Source: a virus
Lineage: Duplodnaviria; Caudoviricetes
Direction: 5' to 3' (one strand)
IMG/VR virus record: IMGVR_UViG_3300046383_000032
Location: 161-64,160 of that record
DNA: 64,000 nt
Shown here: piece by piece, positions 3,212 through 60,100 of the stretch
How the letters are laid out: every line of letters starts with the position of its first letter
Position numbering within the stretch: the stretch's first letter is position 1
The notes under the pieces: generated by a model
Database searches by the model: none
What the model was told of the DNA's origin: nothing
The model's input: the letters and a program-made list of their open reading frames with translations, nothing else
Program-made: the position numbers and the translations under genes

Positions 3212-4342
3212 ATGGACCTTTCAAAGATCGTCAAGCTCCTGCCCGGCTACATCCGCGCAGGCATCTGCCTCGAGATCAGGGGCAACTCCGGCATCGGCAA
3301 GACCGACATGATCAGGCAGTTCGTCTGGGACATGAACAGCAAGCTGGTCGGCGGGACATGGGGCATCGGCTCGCACTTCTTCGCGACCTACACTCCGAGC
3401 GACGTCACCGGCTACCTGATGCCGCGTGAGATCACCGTGGTCAACGCCGACGGCACGACCACCGTGCAGACCATCAGCGTCTGGTCGACGCCCGCGTGGG
3501 CTCGCGCCGACAAGGGTCAGAAGTTCGAGATGCTGAACGACTTCGACAATGGCGTGCTCGCCATGGAGGAGTACGACAAGGCCGGTCTCGAGGTCAAGAA
3601 GGCGGCGGCTCCCGTGCAGCTCTACGGCGGCATCGGCGACTTCATGCTGAAGCCGACCATCGGGCGCATCATGCTGACCAACCACGCCGCCGAAGGGCGG
3701 CAGGGCTCGACCAAGGAGTTCGACTTCACGATCAGCCGCAAGATACTCGTGAACGCGACGCAGTCGGTCAGCGGCTGGATGGACTGGGCGCTGCAGAACG
3801 GGGTCAACCCGGTCACGGTAGCCTTCGCCGAGGAGCACCCCAACGCGGTGTTCGGCAACATCCTGCCGGAGAAGCAGGGGCCGTTCTGCAATCCTCGCAC
3901 GCTGGTCATGCTCGATAGCGTGGCGCGCGAGACCGGCCTGCTCACCAACGACGGCGAGTTGACCGACGCGGAAGCGTTCTACGAGACGGCAACGGGTGCC
4001 ATCGGATCGGTGGCGACCAAGGACCTGACGACGTTCCTGAAGTTCAGGGACGACGTGCCCAAGTGGGATGAGATCGTGGCCAGCCCCGGCAAGGCCAAGG
4101 TCTCGAGCAACTCGGGGGCGCAGCTGATGGCTGCCCACATCTGCGCCTTCAACGTGGACGACAAGACCATCGAGGCGGCGGTGACCTACATCCGCAGGCT
4201 GACCCCGTCGTTCCACATCGTCTTCATCAAGGCTGCCACGCGCCGCAACTTCCGGCTGGTGATCAGCAAGGCGATGAAGAAGTGGACATCGGAAGAGCCG
4301 AGGCTGGTCGCCCTGATCAACGCCTTGGGCGGCAACAAGTAG
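3212..4342 (+). CDS. MoxR-type AAA+ ATPase
   Basis: Walker A GNSGIGKT; Walker B-like LAMEEYDK; NPRT motif; lies upstream of a vWA gene, a known phage pairing. Confidence 0.85.
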   Translation: MDLSKIVKLLPGYIRAGICLEIRGNSGIGKTDMIRQFVWDMNSKLVGGTWGIGSHFFATYTPSDVTGYLMPREITVVNADGTTTVQTISVWSTPAWARADKGQKFEMLNDFDNGVLAMEEYDKAGLEVKKAAAPVQLYGGIGDFMLKPTIGRIMLTNHAAEGRQGSTKEFDFTISRKILVNATQSVSGWMDWALQNGVNPVTVAFAEEHPNAVFGNILPEKQGPFCNPRTLVMLDSVARETGLLTNDGELTDAEAFYETATGAIGSVATKDLTTFLKFRDDVPKWDEIVASPGKAKVSSNSGAQLMAAHICAFNVDDKTIEAAVTYIRRLTPSFHIVFIKAATRRNFRLVISKAMKKWTSEEPRLVALINALGGNK

Positions 4343-4376
4343 ATTACCTTCGAAGGTAATCAGGCGAAACCTGCTT

Positions 4377-4404
4377 CCTTGCTACCGCTATAGCGGTAGC
4401 AAGG
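4377..4404. repeat. 28-bp perfect palindrome
   Basis: CCTTGCTACCGCTATAGCGGTAGCAAGG is its own reverse complement. Confidence 0.9.
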
Positions 4405-4449
4405 TTGGGGGGTAAATGTCAAGAAACAATTCAGGTAAAGGACAAGTCA

Positions 4450-4671
4450 ATGAACATCGTGTTTCATGTTGAACTGCGCGTGCAGAACGCCGAGACGGAA
4501 GACCACATCGAGGCCATCAGCGAGAGCCTGCGGCGGGCAGCGGGGCTCCTACACTCCGACTGCGCGCTGATCCTCGGCGAGGCTTCCGATCCGAAGCTCG
4601 AGATGTGGGGCGAGACGCTGACCGGCGGGCGCTTCGACATCGACCTGCCGAAGCCCGAGGAGGTGCTGTGA
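4450..4671 (+). CDS. small hypothetical protein, paralog of 4808-4987
   Basis: MNIVFHVELR...LLHSDCALILGEASDPKLEMWG. Confidence 0.7.
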   Translation: MNIVFHVELRVQNAETEDHIEAISESLRRAAGLLHSDCALILGEASDPKLEMWGETLTGGRFDIDLPKPEEVL

Positions 4672-4987: not shown

Positions 4988-6246
4988 ATAAATCACCGCT
5001 GAAGAAGGTCAAGCTGGACGCCCAGCAGCGCAAGCTCTGGGAAGACACCTTGGCCGCGCTGAGCTGGGTCGCGCCCGGCTTCGTGCACATCATCTACGAG
5101 ATGCTGAACAACACGGGTGACGACGAAGTCGCCCTGTTCACCGAGGACATCGCCTACACGGCGGCAACCGACGGCTTCCAGATCATCCTGAAGCCCTCGA
5201 GCTTCTTCGGCTATACGCTGATGGAGCGGGTGTTCATCGTGCTGCACGAGACCATGCACGAGATACTCAACCACTGCCGGATGAGCTTCAACCTGCGCAA
5301 GGTTGGCAAGGTTACCGTCGCAGGTAAGACGCTGCCCTACGACCTGATGTTCGCCAACATCGTGCAGGACTTGGTGATCAACGCCATCCTGATCGCATCC
5401 AAGCTCGGGCTCTACAACAAGGCGTGGCTGTTCGACGCCAAGCTGCAGGCCGAGACGAAGGACTGGATCGACCTGTACTTCGAACTGTGGAAGGACATGC
5501 CCAAGGTGTCCAAGCTCGACGGCTTCGACCAGCACATGGAGCCGAACGAGAGCAAGGGCGAGGACCCCAACGAGGCGCAGCCGCGCAACGACACTCAGTG
5601 GGAGATCGCCGTCGCGGCGGGCATGGAGATACAGCGCGCCCACGGCAAGCTGCCTCAGGCACTCGAGCACTTCTTCGACATGGTGCTCAATCCCAAGGTG
5701 CCGTGGGCCGAACACGTCCGGGGGCTCATCGCCCGGATGTCGAACTCGGGCGGCTACGACTGGCACAGGCTCGACCGGCGTCTCATCGTGCGGGGCATCG
5801 GCGCGCCAAGCATGACGGGCTTCGGAGCCGACATCATCGTGGTCGGCGGCGACACATCGGGCTCGGTGTTCATGGACAAGACGCTGATCGCAAGGTGGAT
5901 CGGCGAGATCGGCGGCGTCATCGAGGACCTCAACCCGCGCGAGGTCCACGTCGTCTGGTGCGATTGGGAGGTCAAGCGTGTCGACATCTGCACTGACCCG
6001 TCCGATGTTCGCCAGATGATCTACAAGGGCGTGCCGGGCGGTGGCGGCACGAGCTTCGAGCCGGTGTTCAGATACATCGAGGAGAACGATCTGCGCCCCG
6101 ACGCGCTGATCTACCTGACCGACGGCTTCGGAACTTTCCCGAAGCAGCAGCCGGACTTCCCCGTAGTCTGGGGGAATATATCGGGTAAGGCCGCAACCTA
6201 CCCGTGGGGCGACGTCGTCGATGTCCCGACCTCCGCAGAAGCGTAG
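4984..6246 (+). CDS. metallopeptidase-vWA domain protein (MoxR partner)
   Basis: AATDG and HETMH (HExxH) in the N-terminal half; MIDAS DTSGS, GGGGTSF and YLTDG in the C-terminal half; GTG start after GAGGAGG. Confidence 0.85.
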   Translation: MNKSPLKKVKLDAQQRKLWEDTLAALSWVAPGFVHIIYEMLNNTGDDEVALFTEDIAYTAATDGFQIILKPSSFFGYTLMERVFIVLHETMHEILNHCRMSFNLRKVGKVTVAGKTLPYDLMFANIVQDLVINAILIASKLGLYNKAWLFDAKLQAETKDWIDLYFELWKDMPKVSKLDGFDQHMEPNESKGEDPNEAQPRNDTQWEIAVAAGMEIQRAHGKLPQALEHFFDMVLNPKVPWAEHVRGLIARMSNSGGYDWHRLDRRLIVRGIGAPSMTGFGADIIVVGGDTSGSVFMDKTLIARWIGEIGGVIEDLNPREVHVVWCDWEVKRVDICTDPSDVRQMIYKGVPGGGGTSFEPVFRYIEENDLRPDALIYLTDGFGTFPKQQPDFPVVWGNISGKAATYPWGDVVDVPTSAEA

Positions 6247-54402: not shown

Positions 54403-55845
54403 GTGCCCGACGTAGACTACCACGCACCGAAGACCGTCTCGCAATTGATGCTCGACGACACGTTCGTCAGGCTGATCGCCGGTCCCCTCGGCAGCGGCAA
54501 GACAACAGGTCTCATATTCGAACTGTTGCGCCGATCCCTGATGCAGACACCCGCCGCCGACGGCTACCGCTACACCCGATGGGCGATCCTCCGGCAGACC
54601 CTGCAGCAGCTCAAGCAGACCGTGCTCAAGGACATCAGCCACTGGTTCTCCGGCATCGCCCGCTGGAAGGTCAGCGAGAACACGATCTACTTCCACTTCG
54701 GCGACGTGCGCTCGGAGTGGATACTCCTGCCGCTCGAGGAGCCCGAGGACCGCCGCCGCGTGCTGTCGATGAACCTCACGGGCGCGATGCTCTCGGAGTG
54801 CATCGAGATCGACTACGAGCTGGTCAACGACGTCGCGGGCCGCTGTGGCCGCTTCCCCCTGCCGACCGACGGCGGCTGCACTTGGAACGGCATCGTGATG
54901 GACACCAACATGCCGCCCGAAGGCACGCCGTGGCACGCCGCCATGATCGCCCCGCCGCCCGACTGGAAGGTCTACATCCAGCCCGGCGGGCTCGATCCCG
55001 ACGCCGAGAACCTCGAGTGGCTGCTGCAGACCTCCGAGACGCTCAAGATGTCCGCCGACAACCCGGCCCGCCTCGCGCAGGGCCGGACCTACTACGAGCG
55101 TCTGGCGCGCGGCAACAACGAGAACTGGATCAAGCGCTACGTCCACGCCCAGTTCGGCCCCGACCCGTCGGGCACGGCGGTGTACGCGGGCAGCTTCCGC
55201 CACAGCTTCCACGCCGTCGACAACCTCGAGGTCGTGCCCAACACGCCGCTCTACATCGGGCAGGACTTCGGTCGCGACCCGTGGAGCGTCTTCATGCAGG
55301 TCGACTGGCGCGGTCGCCTGCTGGTGCTCGAGGAAGTGAAGGCCGTCGACATCGGGTTGATCACACACATCCGCAACAACCTGCGCCCGGCGCTGATGAA
55401 CCCGCGATATCAGGGACTTTCAGTTGTCGTGATCGGCGACCCGGCGGGCGTGGCGAAGTCGCAGTACGACGAGCTTAACGCCTTCGACATTTTCAAACGC
55501 GAGGGCATACCGGCAGTGCCTGCGGGGACCAACGACTTCGCCACCCGCATGCGCGACGTCGAGTACTACCTGCTGCAGCAGCGCGACGGCGGCCCGGCGA
55601 TGATCTTCGACAAGACGCGAGCGCCGGTCACCGTTCAGGGCATGGGCGGCATGTACCGCTTCGGCAAGACGCAGCTCGATGTCTCCAAGCCGCTGCCTGA
55701 CAAGAACCCGTGGAGCCATCCCTGCGAGGCTGTGCAGTACGGAGCGATGGGCACGAGAGGCAATACCGCCCGCGCCATCGCCCGTGTCCTGCGGCCCCGT
55801 GCCGGGGCGCGCAGGCCTGCTACGAACGCAGCAGGTTGGACCTAG
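54403..55845 (+). CDS. terL: terminase large subunit
   Basis: GPLGSGKT Walker A, ILRQT, LSECIE, DTNMP; nuclease GQDFGRDP, GDPAG, SHPCEAVQY. Confidence 0.92.
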   Translation: MPDVDYHAPKTVSQLMLDDTFVRLIAGPLGSGKTTGLIFELLRRSLMQTPAADGYRYTRWAILRQTLQQLKQTVLKDISHWFSGIARWKVSENTIYFHFGDVRSEWILLPLEEPEDRRRVLSMNLTGAMLSECIEIDYELVNDVAGRCGRFPLPTDGGCTWNGIVMDTNMPPEGTPWHAAMIAPPPDWKVYIQPGGLDPDAENLEWLLQTSETLKMSADNPARLAQGRTYYERLARGNNENWIKRYVHAQFGPDPSGTAVYAGSFRHSFHAVDNLEVVPNTPLYIGQDFGRDPWSVFMQVDWRGRLLVLEEVKAVDIGLITHIRNNLRPALMNPRYQGLSVVVIGDPAGVAKSQYDELNAFDIFKREGIPAVPAGTNDFATRMRDVEYYLLQQRDGGPAMIFDKTRAPVTVQGMGGMYRFGKTQLDVSKPLPDKNPWSHPCEAVQYGAMGTRGNTARAIARVLRPRAGARRPATNAAGWT

Positions 55846-56807: not shown

Positions 56808-57034
56808 GTCTCCTCCCCAATGCCTGCAGCCTCGGCGGCGGCGATGGCAGTTCGACAATTGACGCAGGCGACCGAGTGCTCACCCTTGGGAAGGCCATAG
56901 TTCCGGCAATCCGCGTAGCAACCGTCGTCGTCGTCAAGGCTCTTCAGCGCGGCCAGCATGGTGCAGCAGACCTTGTTGAGATCGTCGATGCGCTTCCACT
57001 GCTCAATAGCGACCCGAGCGTCATCATCGGTCAT
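56804..57034 (-). CDS. Cys-rich hypothetical protein
   Basis: ATGA overlap; CYADC...H..ACVNC. Confidence 0.6.
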   Translation of the reverse strand: MTDDDARVAIEQWKRIDDLNKVCCTMLAALKSLDDDDGCYADCRNYGLPKGEHSVACVNCRTAIAAAEAAGIGEET

Positions 57035-57408
57035 GGGTTCACCTTCAACGGCACCACGTTGTAGTCGGGGTGCTTGGTCTTGATGTGACGCTGCATGTTG
57101 ACGAAGCTGCGGTTGCAGCACGGACAGAGCCCGGCCTTGGCGCGGGTCTTGTGGCGCTTGAGGTCGGCCTTGGCGGCGTCGCGGGCACGCTGGGCGGCAC
57201 GGGCTTCCTCGTGCAGCCGGGCGTTCTGCTGCTCGAGCTGCTGGCGCTTGCGGCGCTCGACGTCGACCTCGCGCTCTCCCAGATAGTGCCACGTATGTCC
57301 GTTCGGGCAGTAGATCGAGATGCGGCCCTTCTCCTGCTGCGCCTTGTAGTCGAGCGCGTCGGGGATGCCGTACTCGATCCAGCAGCTGGGGCAATTCACG
57401 GTGATCAT
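57031..57408 (-). CDS. zinc-finger/coiled-coil protein
   Basis: CPSC...CPNGH; coiled coil; CPCC...HIKTKH C2H2-like. Confidence 0.75.
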   Translation of the reverse strand: MITVNCPSCWIEYGIPDALDYKAQQEKGRISIYCPNGHTWHYLGEREVDVERRKRQQLEQQNARLHEEARAAQRARDAAKADLKRHKTRAKAGLCPCCNRSFVNMQRHIKTKHPDYNVVPLKVNP

Positions 57409-57599
57409 ATGTCCTCCTGCAACTCGTCCTCGAACACCCGCGCCTTGACCTCGCGGCCTTCGTGGAACCAGCGCACATCGTATTCGATAGAGCCAGTCAT
57501 ACCGATGACATGCAGGTCGACGACGCGCGCCTTGATGAGATCGCACGGCACCACAAGCACGCGCGCGCCGTACTCAAACCTAGGGACCGGCCACTTCAC
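57405..57599 (-). CDS. small SH3/YorP-like beta-barrel protein
   Basis: RFEYGARV...ARVV...YDVRWF...FEDEL. Confidence 0.65.
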   Translation of the reverse strand: MKWPVPRFEYGARVLVVPCDLIKARVVDLHVIGMTGSIEYDVRWFHEGREVKARVFEDELQEDI

Positions 57600-57614: not shown

Positions 57615-58163
57615 TCAGGCGTTCGCCGTGTCCATCCAGTAGCGCATCTCCTCGCCGTCCATGTTGGCGTCCTCGACGTAGCTCGCGACCTCGGTGTCGT
57701 AGGTCGCCGCCTCTCCCAATTGCTTCCACATGCCGATGGTTGTCGCGGCACCGTAGCCGACGCCGGTCCCCCATCCATTGCAGTTCTGGTTGCTGAACAG
57801 CACCGGCATCATTCCGGCGCTGATGCGGACGCAAGAATAGCCGTAGGCTGCAGCCACTCCCATGTTGGTGATCCGCCCGCTGGCGCAGTCAAGATCGTCC
57901 ACGCTGAACCGTACATTGCAGCGCAGTGGCGTATACATGTCAGGGACGTGGTTGTTGACCACGTCGAGTGGAGACGGTCCAGCGCCGCCGCCGAAGCTGC
58001 CGCCGAAGCCAAAGGAACCCCCCAGAAACAGGAACGCCGACCGCGTCTTGGCCTTCTTCGACTTGACGTCGGCGAAGAATATCCCGCCGCCGACGCCCTC
58101 GGCCCCGCCCATTTGACATATAATTGCTATTTCCCAGTCGTTCGCCGCAGTATGCTGTGCCAT
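57615..58163 (-). CDS. Gly-rich hypothetical protein
   Basis: AGGAG RBS; atypical codon usage. Confidence 0.7.
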   Translation of the reverse strand: MAQHTAANDWEIAIICQMGGAEGVGGGIFFADVKSKKAKTRSAFLFLGGSFGFGGSFGGGAGPSPLDVVNNHVPDMYTPLRCNVRFSVDDLDCASGRITNMGVAAAYGYSCVRISAGMMPVLFSNQNCNGWGTGVGYGAATTIGMWKQLGEAATYDTEVASYVEDANMDGEEMRYWMDTANA

Positions 58164-58164
58164 C

Positions 58165-58368
58165 CTAGTCTCCTATGCTCTGCGCTGACTTGAGTATCGC
58201 CGCCGCGAGTTCCAACGCCGTCGCCTTCGTCATGCCGATCCACGACACGTCCTTGCCGAACGCGATCACGACGGTGCGGTCCGTCGTGACGACCTGAAGC
58301 TTGAGCCCGCCCTCATCGCCCTCGTTGAGCTTGCCGCGCGGAAAGTCGCCGGTCGGACCGAGCGCCAT
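58165..58368 (-). CDS. small conserved-looking phage protein
   Basis: GGAGG RBS; GPTGDFPRGKLNEGDEG. Confidence 0.75.
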   Translation of the reverse strand: MALGPTGDFPRGKLNEGDEGGLKLQVVTTDRTVVIAFGKDVSWIGMTKATALELAAAILKSAQSIGD

Positions 58369-58369
58369 C

Positions 58370-58519
58370 CTAGTCCTCCAGTGAAATCTGCCGCTGCAGC
58401 TGGTCGATGTCGTGCATCATCTGGTTGAGCTTGCGGTCGATGCGCTCGAGGTACTCCACGAGGACGCGCAGGCGATCCTCGAGGCGCTGCGACAGCGCCC
58501 GGAGGTCGCTGTCGGTCAC
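58370..58519 (-). CDS. 49-aa coiled-coil protein
   Basis: GTG start overlapping the previous stop; heptad pattern. Confidence 0.6.
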   Translation of the reverse strand: MTDSDLRALSQRLEDRLRVLVEYLERIDRKLNQMMHDIDQLQRQISLED

Positions 58520-58764
58520 GGCAGCCCCTTGGTCGCCGCCAGCACGCACCACATCGACGCGGTCTGCAGCTGAGTAATGGCAACCGCCGCCTCGCGGCCG
58601 GCCGTGCCGCCATCGCGGTCGCGGATCGCCTCCATGATGGTGATGAGCTGAGCGGTGTAGTTCTTGATCAGCGCCACGTTCGCGCTGCCGGACGGATTGA
58701 ACTTCACGCGCACCGCGTCGGCTGCGCTCTCGCTGATCGCCACGGTGGCGGTCTTGTCGGTCAT
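58516..58764 (-). CDS. Acb2/Tad1-like helical-hairpin protein (candidate signal sponge)
   Basis: FNPSG...IK...LI...REAAVAITQLQTASMWCVLAAT resembles the RExSLAxTxLExAxMWAxKA hairpin of this family as I recall it. Confidence 0.55.
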   Translation of the reverse strand: MTDKTATVAISESAADAVRVKFNPSGSANVALIKNYTAQLITIMEAIRDRDGGTAGREAAVAITQLQTASMWCVLAATKGLP

Positions 58765-59066
58765 GATGCTTCTCCTGTCGGCTGGGCCTCGGTCCTAGGC
58801 TCGACCACCTGCAGGTGGACCGGCCCGGACGGGTGCTTGGCCTCGTACCACGCCCGCATCGCCTTGGCGCACTCGAGCGCCTCCTTGGCCTGCTCGGCGT
58901 CGCTCGCGGGCTTGAAGCCGCGCGCGATGTCGGCGCTGCGCGTGAGCGACCACATGTGGACGAGGTTCCACGCGCTGTAGTCGTTGGCGCGCAGCACGAA
59001 GTAGGGCTCGTCGGGCTCGATCTTGGCGAGGCAGTCGAACTCGCCCGGCTGGTTCTTGGTGCTCAT
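58761..59066 (-). CDS. conserved small phage protein (DEPxFxLRA family)
   Basis: GEFDCLAKIEPDEPYFVLRAND...W...AKEALECAKAMRAW. Confidence 0.75.
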   Translation of the reverse strand: MSTKNQPGEFDCLAKIEPDEPYFVLRANDYSAWNLVHMWSLTRSADIARGFKPASDAEQAKEALECAKAMRAWYEAKHPSGPVHLQVVEPRTEAQPTGEAS

Positions 59067-59067
59067 T

Positions 59068-59205
59068 TCACTTCTCCTTGCTGACAGGCCACGGCTTGCC
59101 GCCGCGCACGTAGTCGCCGACGACGATGACGACGCCCCACGCCAGCGCCGTCAAGATAAACGCCAGCACGATGGTCATGACGAGCCCCAGCCAGTCAGCC
59201 TTCAT
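59068..59205 (-). CDS. 45-aa single-TM protein
   Basis: GGAGG RBS; LGLVMTIVLAFILTALAWGVVIVV. Confidence 0.6.
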   Translation of the reverse strand: MKADWLGLVMTIVLAFILTALAWGVVIVVGDYVRGGKPWPVSKEK

Positions 59206-59707
59206 CCTTGGCCTCCTCCCCGGCGTAGCGCTGCTCGGCGGCGCTATCGTAGGGCGGCGGCACGGTCGCGCCAAGGCGCTCGAGCTTCTTCCTGAGTTCG
59301 CGATTGTCCTTGGCGAGCCAGTGCAGCTCCCTGACCAGCACGCCGATGTAGCGCGAGGCCAGCGTCAGCCGCCCTATCGCCCCCGCCCGAAACGGCGTCA
59401 TCGGCGAGGCGCGGTCGCGCGGCTGGACCTGCAGGACCTGCGCGAACTGGCGGAGCCACTCGACGTGGTTCATCTTGCGCAGCACCTTCTCGTCGACGTC
59501 GGGCACGCCGACCGCCTCCACCGCCGCCAAGCCGTCGCTCTCCCCGCTGCCCCCACTACTGGCCATGATCGACCCAACCTCCGCAACGATGCCTTCGAAT
59601 GTCGCCTTGCCGCCGCGTCCCCGGTTGATCGAGGCGACGAACACCCGCAGCACATCACTTTCTGCTCTTCTCGTTCGCGCCTGTCTCGCCGCCTCGCGCC
59701 CGCTCAC
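59195..59707 (-). CDS. hypothetical protein
   Basis: 170-aa ORF with a C-terminal coiled coil; start uncertain. Confidence 0.6.
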   Translation of the reverse strand: MSGREAARQARTRRAESDVLRVFVASINRGRGGKATFEGIVAEVGSIMASSGGSGESDGLAAVEAVGVPDVDEKVLRKMNHVEWLRQFAQVLQVQPRDRASPMTPFRAGAIGRLTLASRYIGVLVRELHWLAKDNRELRKKLERLGATVPPPYDSAAEQRYAGEEAKDEG

Positions 59708-59717
59708 TCGTTATCGC

Positions 59718-60008
59718 TTACTCGGCGTGGTGCTCGCCCGGCGCGGTCGGATCGAGCATCTCCCAGTCGCCGCCCAGCATCTCGTCGTTGTTGGCGACCC
59801 ACGGGGCCGAGAACTCGCCGCGCACGATGGCGACGTAGGCCTGCATGGCGGCCCCGCCGCCCATCTTGTGCGGCAGGTTGGAGACCTCCTTGGGGACGTA
59901 GACGAGGTGCTGGTCCTTGGGCCAGCCCTTGCGCGTCATGCGGTGCCCGGCGCGCAGGTGGCCGATCAGCCAGCCGATGGAGCCGTAGTGCTGGGTGTTC
60001 GCTTCCAT
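59718..60008 (-). CDS. DUF2829/Tad2-like protein (candidate Thoeris anti-defence sponge)
   Basis: GGAGG RBS; LRAGHRMTRKGW...QAY...PWVANNDEMLGGDW follows the DUF2829 pattern K.G..V.R.GW...Q.Y...PW..SQ.D.LA.DW. Confidence 0.7.
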   Translation of the reverse strand: MEANTQHYGSIGWLIGHLRAGHRMTRKGWPKDQHLVYVPKEVSNLPHKMGGGAAMQAYVAIVRGEFSAPWVANNDEMLGGDWEMLDPTAPGEHHAE

Positions 60009-60100
60009 TGAATTCCTCCGGTAAAAAATGTCGACGTTGTCGAGCAGCTTGCCCAGCACCAGCCGCCGGTAACGCAGCTGGTGCTTGGTCGGATGCGGCC

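Follow-up and report, generated by a model that had tools for sequence, protein, structure and literature searches.

Characterized members of the Tad2 and Acb2/Tad1 families soak up the nucleotide signals of Thoeris and of the cyclic oligonucleotide-based antiphage signaling system (CBASS), and Tad2 (DUF2829, PF11195) is a sponge of the Thoeris signal glycocyclic ADP-ribose (gcADPR), with a fold that AcrIIA7 shares. The known phage sponges are short proteins that form homo-oligomers with several positively charged pockets at the protomer interfaces, fusion to known sponge domains is one of their traits, and Sequestin (PF21825), Lockin, Acb4, and Acb5 were recently found as further small phage proteins directed against immune signaling (Tal et al. 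2025, 10.1101/2025.07.12.664507). The locus described here lies in a stretch of 64,000 nucleotides (hereafter the window), which is nearly all of the 64,160-bp IMG/VR virus record IMGVR_UViG_3300046383_000032, rated as 100% complete by CheckV. On its minus strand, at 57.6–60.8 kb, a translationally coupled operon holds a Tad2-like gene, an Acb2-like gene, and two unannotated genes, p101 and p67, which encode proteins of 101 and 67 residues. The original prediction took p101 and p67, by association, as candidates for new sponges or immune inhibitors. The present analysis leads us to favor, with a confidence slightly better than even, a differentiated reading in which p101 is a backbone gene of the phage lineage and p67 is a variable cargo gene with a leaning toward anti-defense; p67 is thus a reasonable new anti-defense candidate, and p101 is a weak one.

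The neighborhood statistics of the homologs, a check that had been set beforehand, turned out differently for the two families. Eighty IMG/VR loci were fetched for each family, for 50 loci per family the complete record was searched for the two Pfam sponge families, and 40 random high-GC IMG/VR records of at least 26 kb, sampled by an arbitrary 14-mer, served as the control. A gene of either sponge family was present in 14/50 records carrying p67 (8/42 lineages when related loci were collapsed), with a Tad2-like gene in 5/50 and an Acb2/Tad1 gene in 11/50, while the control contained either gene in only 1/40 records (Tad2-like 1/40, Acb2/Tad1 0/40; p = 0.001 by Fisher's exact test). In the p101 carriers, either gene was found in 7/50 records (6/39 lineages), comprising Tad2-like genes in 5/50 and Acb2/Tad1 genes above the cut-off in 4/50, plus 2 weak matches, and the comparison with the same control gave p = 0.07. 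The spacing between p101 and the sponge genes was that expected at random: among 10 pairs, 3 lay within 10 kb (3.2 expected) and 2 within 6 kb (2.0 expected), and the median distance was 17 kb against 16 kb under the null. For p67, 11 of the 16 pairs were within 10 kb (5.5 expected, P = 0.003), four of which belong to one lineage. Outside the window, direct adjacency of p67 and a sponge gene was observed in one of the 16 pairs (L115, where Acb2 stands immediately upstream of the p67 homolog), and in L104 a pair of Tad2 and Acb2 genes lies 2.8 kb from the p67 homolog; Sequestin PF21825 occurred in 1/50 p67 records, which is uninformative. The distance pattern of p67 fits a shared non-structural arm of the genome, not a tight island. 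Tight clustering of genuine sponge genes can be seen in the same data, where Tad2-like and Acb2 genes adjoin in G028 (C1:51500-51915), G029 (C1:16804-17219), and L104 (7603-8099), which provides a positive control. The candidacy by association was, therefore, sustained weakly for p67, through its genome-level and 10-kb enrichment without any excess within 3–6 kb, and was largely lost for p101, which showed no co-localization.

Comparison with related phages separates the two genes in another way. Four of the fetched loci come from relatives whose large terminase (TerL) shares 62% (L044) or 52–53% (L014, L033, and L023) identity with that of the window. In all four, a homolog of the window gene p229 (L044:1060-1626, L014:1367-1900, L033:5417-5917, and L023:5464-5943) is located directly upstream of the p101 homolog, and TerL is convergent, 0.5–2.1 kb downstream. 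No homolog of the Tad2, TM45, Acb2, cc49, p67, p182, p64, p171, or p108 genes of the window was found in the fetched loci of these four relatives. Because the p229–p101 pair is kept in the relatives while the sponge genes and p67 are absent, p101 is part of a conserved frame, of which the sponge genes and p67 are the variable filling. In the window, a 1.03-kb block consisting of the Tad2-like gene, p170, and TM45 separates p229 from p101; the block is absent at this junction in 4/4 relatives, which is consistent with its insertion there. Between p101 and the terminase the window holds 2.9 kb of cargo (Acb2, cc49, p67, p182, and later genes), in a slot that measures ~0.5–2.9 kb overall. As judged from these gene orders, p67 is swap-in cargo, like Acb2.

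The wider neighborhoods of the two families were very variable, and no neighbor family, when the same-strand open reading frames (ORFs) within 3 kb were clustered, was found in more than 12/82 loci. The recurrent neighbors were DNA polymerase A (PolA), superfamily 2 (SF2) helicases, PD-(D/E)XK and YqaJ nucleases, RecT, a single-stranded DNA-binding protein, uracil-DNA glycosylase, DNA methylases, HNH endonucleases, DUF5131, and DUF1643, and one further recurrent cluster was Tad2-like. At least one of six clusters (PolA, SF2 helicase, DUF5131, DUF1643, N6/N4 methylase, and HNH) was present within 3 kb in 31/80 p101 loci and in 13/80 p67 loci. In metagenome contigs with precomputed Pfam annotation, a RecT/YqaJ or RecA-like gene adjoins p101 relatives, ERF/YqaJ, methylase, and HNH genes are located near p67 relatives, and neither Tad2 nor Acb2 was found within 5 kb of relatives of either family.

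The p101 family is very large: an exhaustive search with a profile built from p101 and its three word-index homologs yielded 4441 clusters at 50% identity with E ≤ 1e-3, of which 1428 had E ≤ 1e-10. The domain comprises ~70 residues and is nearly always N-terminal, in proteins of 72–315 residues, and two tandem copies exist in ~8 of the 150 best relatives. In L014:1903-2481, it lies within a 192-residue ORF behind a 70-residue N-terminal extension, which might represent a fusion, unless the true start is an internal Met. Under the motif MxTKNxPGxFDC...DEPxFxL..D...W, residues E20, F23, D29, W39, and A63 are invariant, M1, T3, K4, P7, G8, D11, C12, D19, P21, L25, A32, E62, and M70 are at least 95% conserved, and C66 is conserved at 85%; the median isoelectric point (pI) of the core is 5.3. 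The AlphaFold2 (AF2) monomer model from a deep alignment, with a mean predicted local distance difference test (pLDDT) score of 90.4, places an ordered N-terminal coil of 30 residues against a helical hairpin (32–48 and 54–77), and the C-terminal tail is loose. In genome contigs, a profile search with an 11-row alignment located the family in metagenome-assembled genomes of Alphaproteobacteria, Burkholderiales, Planctomycetota, Chloroflexota, Bacillota, Myxococcota, Acidobacteriota, Eremiobacterota, and Patescibacteria, and in one isolate, Vineibacter terrae. Such a distribution across phages and prophages of many phyla suggests a universal target, and the strictly conserved N-terminus together with the acidic/Cys cluster suggests that p101 might recognize a universal ligand, metal, or partner, with a fast-evolving host protein being less likely.

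Similarity searches placed p101 in no described family. No Pfam or PHROGs family covers the domain in p101 or its 150 relatives, the window protein lacks an NCBIfam match and has no Pfam match at E ≤ 0.1, and none of the 150 relatives matches Tad1, Tad2, Acb2, Acb4, or Sequestin or carries a fusion to a Tad2, Acb4, Sequestin, or Acb2 domain. Against PDB sequences the p101 profile retrieved nothing credible, and fold searches (Foldseek against PDB and BFVD, and the Foldseek-independent VIA) returned generic helical-hairpin matches only, with Z ≤ 7 and no solved sponge among them. Profile-profile comparison with hhalign gave a probability of 0.07% against the Acb2/Tad1 profile and detected no relation to p67.

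The p67 family is represented by at least 398 proteins at E ≤ 0.01 in a search with a profile of p67 and its homologs. Its motif is TGDFPRGKLN..DEGGL ... FGK.V.WIG, in which P10, G12, F37, W43, G45, and A51 are invariant and R11, K13, D18, and E19 are nearly so, and the median pI of the family is 8.1; the pI values of the two families speak neither for nor against the basic pockets of a sponge. The AF2 monomer, also from a deep alignment (pLDDT 88.9), consists of an extended N-terminus, a β-hairpin (25–36), and one helix (48–63). As with p101, no Pfam or PHROGs family covers the domain in p67 or 120 relatives, and the window protein has no NCBIfam match; a Pfam scan that included relatives found no homology with Tad1, Tad2, Acb2, Acb4, or Sequestin, the profile gave nothing credible among PDB sequences, the same fold searches produced no informative match (Z ≤ 3) and no solved sponge, and the hhalign probability against the Acb2/Tad1 profile was 0.1%. 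No fusion to known sponge domains was present in the 120 relatives, longer forms of p67 having not been searched. One phage contig with direct terminal repeats, L139, has two p67-family copies 1.6 kb apart (4284-4622 and 5890-6228) with identical E-values, which may be a recent local duplication. Homologs of the window gene p171, which matches phrog_33336 (E = 4.8e-21) and carries a C2H2-like zinc finger in its tail, are located 0.4–1.7 kb from p67 homologs in two contigs (L103:1186-1581 and L140:1477-1869), and p171 may therefore travel with p67. A 182-residue neighbor in two p67 loci equals p182 of the window in length, which proved to be a coincidence because the proteins have no similarity.

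Both families appear to be restricted to phages that have escaped cultivation. A tblastn search of 50,697 GenBank phage records with p101, p67, and consensus-like relatives found no member, the PLSDB plasmids gave one marginal match, so that the families are essentially absent there, and in the ESM Atlas both proteins fall into unnamed clusters that are 88–100% viral. A lead to DUF6324 from the ESM Atlas (0.83) was not supported by Pfam scans of 120 relatives. Since many spurious ORFs arise in high-GC DNA, and the GC content of this genome is ~65% (0.65), it may be asked whether p101 and p67 are chance open frames. Hundreds to thousands of homologs with strongly conserved motifs, G+C contents at the third codon position (GC3) of 0.93 for p101 and 0.87 for p67, Shine-Dalgarno (SD) sites, translational coupling, and confident AF2 models all speak against this idea, which the conservation data refute and to which we assign virtually no probability. 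The two ORFs are genuine genes of two separate, large, phage-restricted, unannotated families, and the many homologs of each show that they are not chance frames.

If p101 and p67 were both new sponges or direct inhibitors of defense, they would form a four-gene anti-defense island with Tad2 and Acb2. The two genes are indeed in the same coupled operon as the two sponge-family genes, their products are short, a trait of sponges (10.1101/2025.07.12.664507), their families are confined to phages and occur widely across hosts, the tandem domains in some p101 relatives hint at an oligomeric unit, and in three further contigs members of the two families are no more than 12 kb apart. Such an island is nevertheless quite improbable in our judgment, because p101 shows no co-localization with tad/acb genes and belongs to the backbone of relatives in which sponge genes are absent, because neither a sponge-domain fusion in the 150 and 120 scanned members, nor an hhalign probability of even 1% against the Acb2/Tad1 profile, nor a fold match to solved sponges was obtained, and because true sponge genes cluster tightly in the same data, as in the three positive-control loci, while the p101 and p67 families rarely do. 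Another possibility is that neither gene is related to immunity and that both encode ordinary early host-takeover, regulatory, or DNA-metabolism proteins in a hypervariable early arm where sponge genes land too. The replication, recombination, methylase, and HNH genes among the recurrent neighbors would agree with this explanation, as would the lack of a tad/acb excess within 3–6 kb of either family, and the enrichment within 10 kb is what would be expected of genes that both reside in the non-structural half of a genome. It accounts less readily for the genome-wide enrichment of Acb2/Tad2 in p67 carriers over the random sample, for the direct adjacency in L115 and in the window, and for the behavior of p67 as mobile cargo instead of a core gene, and we regard it as possible though on the unlikely side.

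Several observations also weigh against the differentiated reading that we favor. The random control was unmatched for lineage, habitat, and lifestyle, and the anti-defense families counted were limited to Tad2, Acb2/Tad1, and, in part, Sequestin. The p67 and p101 record sets are not clearly distinct, the difference in their Acb2 counts (11/50 and 4/50) is not clearly significant, the p67 pairs within 6 kb (5/16, 3.4 expected) do not form a significant excess, those within 3 kb number 2 where 1.7 were expected, and a custom Acb2/Tad1 hidden Markov model found a match within 6 kb in 4/80 loci of each family, which is unfavorable for p67. As for p101, no single neighbor family was present in more than 8/80 loci, and its assignment to a replication module is a matter of association only. 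In L042/L043, moreover, a 65-residue Acb2-like ORF that remains below the threshold (20.5 bits) is located immediately downstream of the p101 homolog, and this single recurrence of the p101/Acb2 arrangement seen in the window keeps an anti-defense link for p101 alive.

Under the differentiated reading, the region makes up the distal part of an accessory operon (~56.2–60.9 kb) that runs leftward with translational coupling, and it is a true accessory hot-spot containing two sponge-family genes. The most likely role of p101, to which we give a not quite even chance, would be that of a stand-alone accessory factor of the phage module for DNA replication, recombination, or modification, because p101 has the status of a backbone gene, is usually found in a replication-module context, and is spaced at random from tad/acb genes. 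Perhaps p101 modulates or inhibits a nuclease or a replication protein, and the ligand of its conserved acidic/Cys cluster (D11, C12, D19, E20, D29, E62, and C66) might be a metal or a basic partner; a role of p101 as a sponge or immune inhibitor seems rather unlikely. For p67, the role we would tentatively put first is that of a small oligomeric binder that neutralizes a component or signal of host immunity early in infection, and such a counter-defense role is plausible because of its cargo status, the genome-level co-occurrence with Acb2/Tad2, and the occasional adjacency to Acb2. A bolder proposal, which we consider unlikely, is that the p67 family (TGDFPRGKL...DEGxL...FGKxVxWIG) founds a new class of small counter-defense proteins, sponges or inhibitors, that travels as swap-in cargo with Acb2, and that, less probably still, the p101 family forms a second class acting through its invariant N-terminal segment.

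The ORFs named in the original prediction were all found at their stated coordinates on the minus strand. When ORFs are filtered by third-position GC, a minus-strand gene run from ~60.9 to 56.2 kb stands out, in which the order is Tad2-like, p170, TM45, p101, Acb2-like, cc49, p67, and p182 (Table 1), and whose end is convergent with the TerL gene, itself a weak match (Terminase_6N). The tight coupling of the small ORFs is borne out by junctions that range from an 11-nt overlap, between the p170 stop and TM45, to 1-nt gaps, and by an AGGAG-type SD site read in the sequence at every start in the operon. The position of p101 between the two sponge-family genes also holds, with a 1-nt gap after TM45 and a 4-nt overlap (ATGA) with the Acb2-like gene; the stop of the latter overlaps the 49-residue ORF in GTGA, and 1-nt gaps precede p67 and p182, so that p67 does follow the Acb2-like gene, one small gene (cc49) further on. 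Megablast of the region against GenBank phages found no relative at the DNA level, and a scan of the region for promoters and terminators gave no signal above shuffled sequences. The 92 nt that separate p229 from the Tad2-like gene contain a small hairpin with a T-run behind it, located at the upstream border of the apparent insertion, and such sites are no commoner than in the shuffled background.

Table 1. Genes and other features in and around the operon, in the order of the minus strand (positions in the window).
Feature	Position	Strand	Remarks
p229, 229 residues	60101..60790	-	No Pfam or NCBIfam match; tblastn homologs next to p101 homologs in L044, L014, L033, and L023
Hairpin and T-run	60031..60043	-	
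Tad2-like (DUF2829), 96 residues	59718..60008	-	ATG at 60008 with GGAGG SD
p170, start codon uncertain	59195..59707	-	GC3 0.86; no family match; one homolog, in related contig L044
TM45, 45-residue predicted single-pass membrane protein	59068..59205	-	ATG at 59205 after GGAGG; hydrophobic core
p101, 101 residues	58761..59066	-	Large unannotated phage family; ~70-residue N-terminal domain
Acb2/Tad1-hairpin gene, 82 residues	58516..58764	-	FNPSG subgroup
cc49, 49-residue predicted coiled-coil ORF	58370..58519	-	60 residues from upstream GTG at 58552; GC3 0.89; weak coiled-coil Pfam noise
p67, 67 residues	58165..58368	-	Second unannotated phage family
p182, next coupled gene after p67	57615..58163	-	Gly-rich; GC3 0.79; no family match
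p171	57031..57546	-	
ORF of 107 residues	56614..56937	-	
TerL	54403..55845	+	

Among the other genes of the region, TM45 and cc49 have no homolog in the fetched loci, and p182, which contains GGSFGFGGSFGGG runs, has none among ~200 fetched loci and no family match. By eye, the N-terminus of p229 resembles a degenerate GIY-YIG motif (GVFALIN...AYVSYTQNLQKR) and its C-terminus a DNA-binding tail of the homing-endonuclease type. The 107-residue ORF, which occupies the same cargo slot, has a C-terminal RanBP-type zinc ribbon (PF00641, E = 1.1e-7).

The two sponge-family assignments on either side of p101, which the original prediction had also made, were upheld by Pfam. The Tad2-like protein matches PF11195 at 43.6 bits (cut-off 25, E = 4.3e-11) over profile positions 2–72 of 73, and phmmer finds weak matches to the solved DUF2829 chains AcrIIA7 9kzr and 8kbi (E 0.004–0.03). 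The Acb2-like protein matches PF24729 (Acb2_Tad1_hairpin) at 33.9 bits (cut-off 27, E = 3.7e-8) and can be aligned with 13 Pfam-positive proteins of other phages, within the subgroup that has the FNPSG motif; phmmer against solved structures found no relative at E ≤ 1. The two genes are, by these profile matches, new members of the known sponge families Tad2-like and Acb2/Tad1-like.

Phage counter-defense genes have mostly been found by guilt by association, and the present case gives a measure of how far such reasoning carries. The true sponge genes Tad2 and Acb2 adjoin in several unrelated phages of the same data, and the two unannotated families do not. What the analysis defines are two very large families restricted to uncultured phages, with confident predicted folds and sharp motifs, that are represented in neither Pfam, PHROGs, nor GenBank phages. 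As a ranking for further work, screens against signaling defenses should turn first to the p67 family, and the p101 family is better treated as a putative component of phage DNA-metabolism modules.

Compared with the known systems, the Tad2-like gene of the window agrees with Tad2 in passing the Pfam threshold and in being short, phage-encoded, and part of an accessory operon, but it is divergent, matching the solved DUF2829 chains only weakly, and the binding of gcADPR and the homotetramer are putative for its product. The Acb2-like gene resembles the Acb2/Tad1 hairpin sponges in passing the Pfam threshold and in aligning with the FNPSG-type members, and its hexameric state and cyclic-nucleotide pockets are likewise putative. 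Neither p101 nor p67 has similarity to the Tad2 family. A helical hairpin is common to p101 and the Acb2/Tad1 sponges, but that of p101 is not detectably related to theirs, and the highly conserved N-terminal segment of 30 residues is unique to p101. Modulators of the Lambda Gam/Abc2 type offer a possible analogy for p101, in that some of its relatives adjoin a RecT/YqaJ or RecA-like gene, as gam stands beside bet and exo; there is no similarity in sequence or fold, recombinase genes are adjacent in a minority of loci, and the likeness is an analogy only. In comparison with Sequestin, Lockin, Acb4, and Acb5, p101 and p67 have no match to PF21825 or PF13876 and no fusion to known sponge domains, and their motif strings were found neither in a full-text literature search nor in the supplementary tables of 10.1101/2025.07.12.664507. 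Those proteins are short and phage-specific, formerly had no known function, and come from large metagenomic families, and p101 (101 residues, with a core of ~70) and p67 (67 residues), which are within the length typical of sponges (under ~100–200 residues), fit the same profile of size and distribution.

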